A stretch of 64,000 bases of DNA from Eledone cirrhosa (taxonomy: Eukaryota). Below the pieces are notes generated by a model. The model was not told where the DNA came from. It was given only the letters and a program-made list of their open reading frames with translations, and searched no databases. The position numbers and the translations under genes are program-made. Each line of letters opens with the position of its first letter. The stretch's first letter is position 1. Positions 58,485-59,162 of the stretch are shown in pieces. The stretch covers positions 174,468,001-174,532,000 of the forward strand of contig OZ024742.1 in NCBI GenBank assembly GCA_964016885.1. The letters are read 5' to 3'.

Positions 58485-59162
58485 AAGGCTATACATTTCA
58501 GACAACACTAAAAGAATTTTAAAATTGACTGTCCAGCTGCACGTGGGAGAGAGAAGTCACAGCGTGTTTAAGGGCAGTGAACCAGTGGCCTCTGAGGGAC
58601 GAACTGCTAGAAAGGCCAGCCGAAAGCCACTCAGAGAAGTGTGCTCAACCAAACAGAGATAGGAAAGACTGTTATTAGGAGCGAAATATCACGATAAATT
58701 AACGGAAGCATAGGCCCTCGCTATTCCCTGTAAATAATGTCCTCAAAGGAGAAGAGATCCTGAGCTCTTTAAAATACAATATGTTTAAAAGGTAACACAT
58801 CAGAGAGTGTGTTATATAGTTATAGAGGTATTTATTTATGCTTTAATTTATATTTTTAATTATCGTGTCTATAGTCTGCCTTTCATAGGTTATATATTCC
58901 ATACACTGGTGTTTTTTTCCCCTGTTTTATTGATAACGCACTGTATATCTCTCTCTCTGGTGTGTCACCTTTTCAACATATTGTATATATATATATATAT
59001 ATATATATATATATATATATATATATATATATATATATATATATATATATATATATATATATATATATATATATATATATATATATATATATATATATAT
59101 ATATATATATATATATATATATATGAATTTACATGTGCATTTATATATACATATAAGATGGA

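Follow-up and report, generated by a model that had tools for sequence, protein, structure and literature searches.

Arms of a hammerhead-bearing repeat with Penelope-like architecture in Eledone cirrhosa, and an arm that starts beside a predicted cleavage site

Anatomy of the repeat locus and its hammerhead

The window analyzed here is a 64,000-nucleotide stretch of the Eledone cirrhosa contig OZ024742.1 (positions 174,468,001 to 174,532,000). Self-comparison and alignment resolved positions 57172–59123 of the window into four arms of one repeat and two (TA)n tracts. Signed positions are counted from the predicted hammerhead cut, with +1 as the first base of the 3' product. Features of the locus are as follows.

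57172–57436, minus strand: arm A, the inverted partner of B, with its 5' end at −135; reads through the hammerhead
57435–57976, plus strand: arm B, one unit, with its 5' end at most 2 nt from the priming site; reads through the hammerhead
57977–58130, no strand: (TA)n tract with interruptions, common to the 3' ends of B and C
58131–58807, minus strand: arm C, a 558-nt unit plus a 120-nt repeat; reads through the hammerhead
58391–58484, minus strand: predicted type I hammerhead of C, with a 7-bp stem I, long stems II and III, and the cut between 58398 and 58397
58807–58983, plus strand: arm D, an inverted 5' arm from +2/+3 of the cut to the fixed priming site (+178)
58807–58819, plus strand: head-to-head joint of C and D, the first 13 nt of D against the antisense continuation of C
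58984–59123, no strand: (TA)n target tract at the 3' end of D

Arms are joined head to head in both pairs, A/B and C/D. The 3' end of A is lost in a gap of Ns (56972–57171) that hides its priming site. A preliminary description of this DNA held that B and D share a 3' end followed by (TA)n, and this is confirmed: the ends are at 57976 in B and 58983 in D, each with ...CATATTG, at a point where the element itself continues with TA. Arm C extends 88 nt past this end, forming a tail, and its 5' end lies 30 nt upstream of the upstream priming site. Its internal repeat is identical in 113 of 121 columns (8 differ). Because C holds a unit plus a 120-nt repeat, its source RNA would have been tandem or circular. 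Given its 5' end (57435–57436), B is exactly one unit whose point of permutation is the priming site, with a precision equal to that of the coincidence between D and the cut.

Arm D is identical to C at 129 of 136 positions (7 differences), to B at 125 of 134, and to A at 117 of 129. Since the identity between D and C is similar to that between C's own two repeats, a single insertion is the best reading of C and D, with C on the minus strand, D on the plus strand, a head-to-head joint, and TA on its flanks. To judge from these alignments, D is an inverted arm of a composite insertion and not a free copy. The copy had been placed at 58801–58983, of which 58807–58983 is indeed D and 58801–58806 are part of arm C.

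The unit lacks an open reading frame, and a tblastn search of 57172–59000 with 81 proteins of Penelope-like elements (PLEs) at E values up to 1 gave zero matches. Together with its abundance in reads (below), the arrangement of its arms marks the A–D repeat, as far as sequence can tell, as a high-copy, non-coding repeat with Penelope-like architecture.

The hammerhead call for C is based on our own descriptor and inspection. The core CUGAUGA (58477–58471), GAAA (58433–58430), and a GUA triplet place the predicted cleavage after A58398. C has all elements of a type I hammerhead (a CUGANGA core, GAAA, an NUH triplet, three stems, and a stem I that closes the ends), and the 100-nt region folds with z = −2.72 (2 of 200 shuffles were as stable). 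Arm C thus carries a complete type I hammerhead that is predicted to be self-cleaving. GAAG replaces GAAA in B (core 57737–57743, predicted cut after 57804), and C3 is changed to U in A (predicted cut after 57302). Rfam gave zero matches at the gathering score in the window and no hammerhead among nine E-value matches in 57172–59000. None of the 40 read variants shown, from a total of 435, hits the hammerhead core or triplet, which weakly supports conservation of the predicted ribozyme.

The start of arm D, the C/D joint, and reads of the family

Identity of D to the family begins at G58807 (+2), a base that also fits the adjacent inverted arm C. The unambiguous start is T58808 (+3), and the C at +1 is missing from D. 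The start had been described as lying within 1 nt of the cleavage site; the closeness stands, while the distance is 1–2 nt, depending on which of these two bases is taken. That earlier reading overlooked that D is an inverted arm of a composite insertion joined via imperfect homology. It also overlooked that a reverse transcriptase (RT) stop at a folded, uncut hammerhead predicts a near-identical breakpoint.

The first 13 nt of D match the continuation of arm C at 8 of 13 positions when C's own tail copy is used and at 9 of 13 with the version in D. Among all 558 × 558 breakpoint pairs, at least 8 matches occur in 0.67% and at least 9 in 0.11%. At every mismatch of the patch the letter is D's, as expected if the D cDNA end served as primer on the C cDNA; this suggests that the joint was primed in this way, with the missing +1 base as a terminus that would have been unpaired there. 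The patch raises the chance of a joint at +1 to +3 about two-fold (0.9%–1.2% of high-homology pairs vs 0.54% if uniform); homology therefore accounts for the partner and not for the position.

The position could be a coincidence. D would then be an ordinary inverted, 5'-truncated PLE arm produced by a random RT stop, with a joint fixed by imperfect homology and a match to the cut that is one of several possible landmark coincidences. In a 558-nt unit, the chance that one given end lies no more than 2 nt to either side of the cut is 0.9%, and the chance that at least one of the four locus ends does so is 3.5%, before allowing for a landmark picked post hoc. The 5' end of B matches a different landmark equally precisely. 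We consider a coincidence unlikely, given that homology favors +1 to +3 just two-fold and that two ends beyond the one first described also lie at cuts (below).

Alternatively, RT could have halted on uncut RNA at the three-way junction of the hammerhead (stem I, then stem III from −2), with trimming of a few bases. The hammerhead of this family is stably folded, with long stems, and cleavage is dispensable in vitro for another PLE, according to the experiments described in PMC11167929. From general RT behavior, however, the outer end of stem I (+7) is where stalling should occur first, and we regard a structural stop as improbable, the more so in view of the second family described below.

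The joint could also be a fold-back at the DNA level or an assembly join between repeat copies instead of a product of retrotransposition. The locus is near-palindromic and lies beside a gap of Ns, and its own C/D joint is absent among the joints listed from reads; the best run contains only 0.33 of the words. Such an origin is nevertheless very improbable. D stops at the priming site of the family, is followed by a TA tract of its own, and does not copy C to its tail. The differences between D and C are about as frequent as those between C's internal repeats, the head-to-head layout with a tail recurs in A/B and in the second family, and seven such joints occur in public reads.

Four of 12 listed public read runs were mapped on copy C. 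In three of them the family is high-copy, with 2241 contigs in X1 and, in the RAD runs, 2731 reads (X10) and 2368 reads (X11); X4, which comes from another organism, yielded just 7 contigs, and no joint was seen in it. For the family at large, the reads support what the preliminary description proposed, priming at a TA tract, and place it at a fixed 3' site: (TA)n loose ends at 58215/58216 are found in 131 reads of X10 and 110 + 169 reads of X11, and the B/D 3' end with its (TA)n ranks near the top of the loose ends in each of these runs.

Nine joints are listed in the reads, seven of which change strand. Of the 14 ends of these opposite-strand joints, one is at 58395 (+3), one is at 58400 (−3), and 12 are elsewhere, of which eight lie in the range from +142 to +292, near the priming and tail sites. 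A single contig of depth 7.7 provides the 58395 joint; its shorter side spans 56 nt, and neither shared letters nor an orientation are listed for it. An end at +3 has p ~0.07 for 14 ends. That 13 of the 14 ends lie outside +1 to +3 is what a coincidence would give, and the end at −3 would fit an RT halt just inside stem III. The latter joint (58400/58577) was dropped as support for cleavage; its end is on the wrong side, 3 nt from the cut, and adjoins C-specific mismatches. The second X1 record, which ends at 58398, was not counted (82% identical, a probable alignment break).

The cut is not the dominant 5' end of the family. The 20 loose ends shown, of 382, include none at 58395–58398; a class of this kind would therefore comprise fewer than ~86 reads per RAD run, at a depth near 300–400. 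Summed contig depth in X1 is about 3-fold higher downstream than upstream of the cut. By this crude measure, fitted on 16 of 30 bins, a smooth decay of the kind compatible with random truncation fits as well as a step (AIC −26.0 vs −24.2; step given slope, P = 0.58). Four bins (58384–58475) were left out of the fit because of a dip in depth at 58407–58452 from C's 12-nt insertion and divergent stems. Positions at which many molecules end were rejected as 5' ends: the 12 rows shown, of 18, which lie at 58139, 58345, 58355, 58515, 58518, and 58700, are all at AATT sites and were taken for ends made by RAD digestion. Three loose ends, at 58285, 58411, and 58571, run on into sequence like that of the family and were assigned to divergence from C.

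A second hammerhead family, Penelope-like elements, and a possible mechanism

A descriptor scan of the window gave three hits, compared to one in 10 shuffled windows; this descriptor, a stricter one, missed the long-stem ribozyme of C. A hit at 47925 was rejected (1-bp stem III). The best hit belongs to a second hammerhead family, F2. Copies of F2 and a broken PLE are located as follows.

54141–54514, no strand: F2 head-to-head pair, laid out as A–D, one arm with a 65-nt tail and both ending in TA
5623–5773, plus strand: F2 solo copy, TA-flanked on both sides, with its 5' boundary at −2 to +1 of the F2 cut
61552–63840, minus strand: broken PLE with the end of the RT, a thumb, a Cx4Cx2C linker, and a GIY-YIG-type domain, with stops and frameshifts and TA on both sides

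The F2 pair has a U3-A8 core, with cuts after 54431 on the plus strand and 54289 on the minus strand. Both of its arms read through the hammerhead, starting at about −71. They start at the same position (within 1 nt, 54354–54367), which suggests another fixed 5' end or a fold-back. In the solo copy, the first base of the 3' product is A5625. One of three F2 arms thus begins at its cut, with p ~0.02 for random truncation. This start could also be explained by TA microhomology with the target, as chance would have it, and p is 0.07–0.09 if the joint uses one of 12 TA sites. The F2 solo copy and the 58395 joint are independent of D and have a combined p of 0.011–0.036, post hoc, which weighs against coincidence. 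All cut-site statistics are post hoc and based on three events (D, the 5623 solo copy, and the 58395 joint). Moreover, cut-starting copies are recognizable only with a read-through relative at hand, which biases the window tally in an unknown direction. Helix III of F2 is limited to 1–2 bp, and the F2 fold does not exceed shuffles in stability (z = −0.2 to −0.6), so that a start at the F2 cut argues against a structural stop.

The PLE at 61552–63840 has a hammerhead in its 3' end, with a U3-A8 core, a cut after 61667, and 73% similarity to F2 over 64–77 nt. No DNA similarity between this element and the A–D family was found in self-comparison. A 171-aa piece of the PLE has 81 longer relatives, many with RT (PF00078) and GIY-YIG (PF01541) domains; the piece itself gave no family in a Pfam search. 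The Cx4Cx2C linker and TA target suggest a Neptune or Nematis type, by the description given in PMC8557442. The TA-joined 3' end lies ~115 nt downstream of the hammerhead-like cut in the broken PLE and 53, 57, and 29 nt downstream in three related PLEs from public contigs (L003, L004, and L005), which places the priming site near the 5' end of a cleaved RNA. The three related PLEs have no mappable inverted arm. Their contigs are filed under bacterial genome bins and carry Penelope-like ORFs, hammerheads, and TA-joined ends; they are probably animal DNA.

A scan of viral contigs with PLE proteins gave no locus. In a search for an autonomous partner, a 22-nt family pattern had one match in metagenome contigs, none in viral genomes, and one in prokaryote genomes. 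Both matches have only 22–26 nt in common with the family and were attributed to chance.

Type I hammerheads in pseudo-LTRs have been described for endonuclease-bearing (EN+) PLEs (Cervera and de la Peña 2014, PMC4209133; Craig et al. 2021, PMC8557442). The A–D locus resembles these elements, as PMC8557442 depicts them, in its partial tandem, the inverted 5'-truncated copy by the 5' end, a tail on one side, a type I hammerhead, and (TA)n targets, where insertion proceeds from a fixed 3' site (ends of B, C, and D; reads of X10 and X11). The U3-A8 core of F2 is the variant that PMC4209133 describes for Schistosoma PLEs. The locus differs from EN+ PLEs in that A–D lacks its own RT/GIY-YIG ORF. 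In addition, tails are 88 nt (C) and 65 nt (F2) here, compared to the 30–40 nt given for EN+ PLEs, and the A–D hammerhead has long stems II and III instead of the minimal form described for those elements.

Animal non-LTR retrozymes (Cervera and de la Peña 2020, PMC7229834; Li, Clavereau, and Pollet 2026, 10.64898/2026.07.22.740005) share with A–D a non-coding unit with one type I hammerhead, low GC, copies longer than a unit (as in C), and proposed mobilization by PLEs. The 558-nt unit falls within the 51–972 bp range stated in 10.64898/2026.07.22.740005 and above the 150–450 bp stated in PMC7229834. Two consecutive units with complete hammerheads, the mark of active retrozymes in 10.64898/2026.07.22.740005, are absent at the locus, where C comprises 1.2 units. 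A–D copies are permuted at the priming site and not, as described for retrozymes, at the cut. By these comparisons, A–D would work like a non-autonomous repeat mobilized by a PLE, with membership assigned by layout and target only.

For the Anolis element Poseidon (PAc), the experiments of Frangieh et al. (2024, PMC11167929) show both target strands nicked and extended by the PLE protein in vitro. Hammerhead mutants had no effect on insertion in vitro, and in the RNA-seq described there no reads begin or end at the cut. PAc is similar to the system considered here in its AT-rich target, priming of both strands, and two internal RT starts downstream of the cut that define a tail; it differs in an ORF that starts inside the hammerhead and in having no RNA ends at the cut, whereas three genomic ends lie at cuts here. 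R2 elements carry an HDV-like ribozyme that defines their 5' junctions (Eickbush et al. 2013, PMC3774820). In that account, the cut fixes the template's 5' end and 5' junctions form via chance microhomology of the cDNA end, as proposed here for D. However, the ribozyme and element class differ, and the cut is described as the rule for full-length 5' ends of R2, whereas here it applies to at most a minority of short arms. The role and in vivo activity of PLE hammerheads are called a mystery or unclear in the discussions of PMC7761336 and PMC8557442, and the model in PMC4209133 proposes processing and circles without in vivo evidence.

We lean towards C and D as one twin-primed insertion in which the 5' end of D comes from ribozyme-cut RNA, a minority class and not the main template of the family. 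Twin priming is a model from work on LINE-1. Under this reading, A–D would be a non-autonomous, hammerhead-bearing repeat mobilized into (TA)n by a Penelope-like RT/GIY-YIG enzyme, whose involvement we infer. A single tandem RNA, cut at its upstream hammerhead and uncut at the downstream one, would underlie both arms. One target strand would prime at the tail site and 677 nt would be copied through the uncut ribozyme, giving arm C; the other would prime at the fixed site, ~178 nt from the RNA 5' end, and run off the cleaved end, giving arm D. The free cDNA end of D would then anneal to the imperfectly complementary 13-nt patch on the C cDNA, lose one unpaired terminal base, and be extended to give the head-to-head joint at +2. 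The 5' ends of B, at the upstream priming site, and of C, 30 nt past it, fit two target ends priming on one tandem RNA.

The claim that the template of D was self-cleaved is thus upheld in part. Two independent ends at cuts (the 5623 solo copy and the 58395 joint) modestly favor it. Against it, five of the seven arms that could be mapped (A, B, C, and the two of the F2 palindrome) read through the hammerhead, and reads are without a dominant 5' end at the cut. Because RT starts shortly downstream of the cut, a cleaved linear RNA would yield only the product from cut to start, such as D or the 5623 copy; the read-through arms need an uncut tandem or circular RNA. Cleaved templates would accordingly account for a minority of arms and uncut tandem or circular RNA for most.

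The locus is a real feature of a known element type, and the ribozyme-defined start, which is modestly supported, is the new point. In the main texts of the literature searched, we came across no description of PLE copies with a hammerhead cut as their start. We tentatively propose, as a possibility slightly less probable than its absence, that cut-to-start copies (D, the 5623 solo copy, and the 58395 joint) make up a separate class that can be counted in different families and is a fossil record of in vivo cleavage. Cleavage would then limit copy length unless the RNA is uncut or circularized, with the PLE RT starting 30–180 nt downstream of the cut. Should 5' ends prove to peak at the cut across the genome, assemblies could show which ribozymes cut in vivo and how often, and subfamilies with mutant cores would be built-in controls; otherwise, the locus is an ordinary Penelope-type insertion.

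Other repeats in the window

Three hammerhead-like motifs with a U3-A8 core and a palindromic CCGG-type helix III occur in different repeats, at 54402–54431, 61696–61667 (minus strand), and 30790–30821; the one at 61676 has GCAA instead of GAAA. A canonical minimal hammerhead at 7387–7414 (plus strand) lies in a repeat that ends in TA ~95 nt past the cut and has no second copy in the window. At about 30360–30470 (plus strand), a hammerhead-like motif with a very long stem II insertion was seen by eye in a segment that ends at TA near 30630. Three of the window's hammerhead-like motifs lack a second copy there, so that their 5' ends could not be located.

Positions 60872–61537 hold a TA-flanked 527-nt unit with a 140-nt direct repeat (96%) in a layout like that of arm C; the 5' half of a hammerhead core is present on the minus strand, and the GAAA half was not found there. 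An inverted pair at 8041–8236 and 9229–9424 (98.5%) is TA-flanked and possibly a Penelope-type insertion, with no hammerhead seen. Near-perfect palindromes are located at 10843–11233 (391 nt), 53036–53113 (78 nt), and 31025–31129 (105 nt), the first of which consists of members of a short repeat family that is common across the window. Decayed ORFs of non-LTR retrotransposons occur at 11226–13392, 22442–24334, 26140–27423, 28311–29374, 32408–33980, and 59525–60562, with RT matches in Pfam at 26140–27423 and 59748–60275 and a zf-RVT match below the cut-off at 28311–28997. Positions 1–3186 consist of a 56-bp tandem satellite with units that are ~93% identical.
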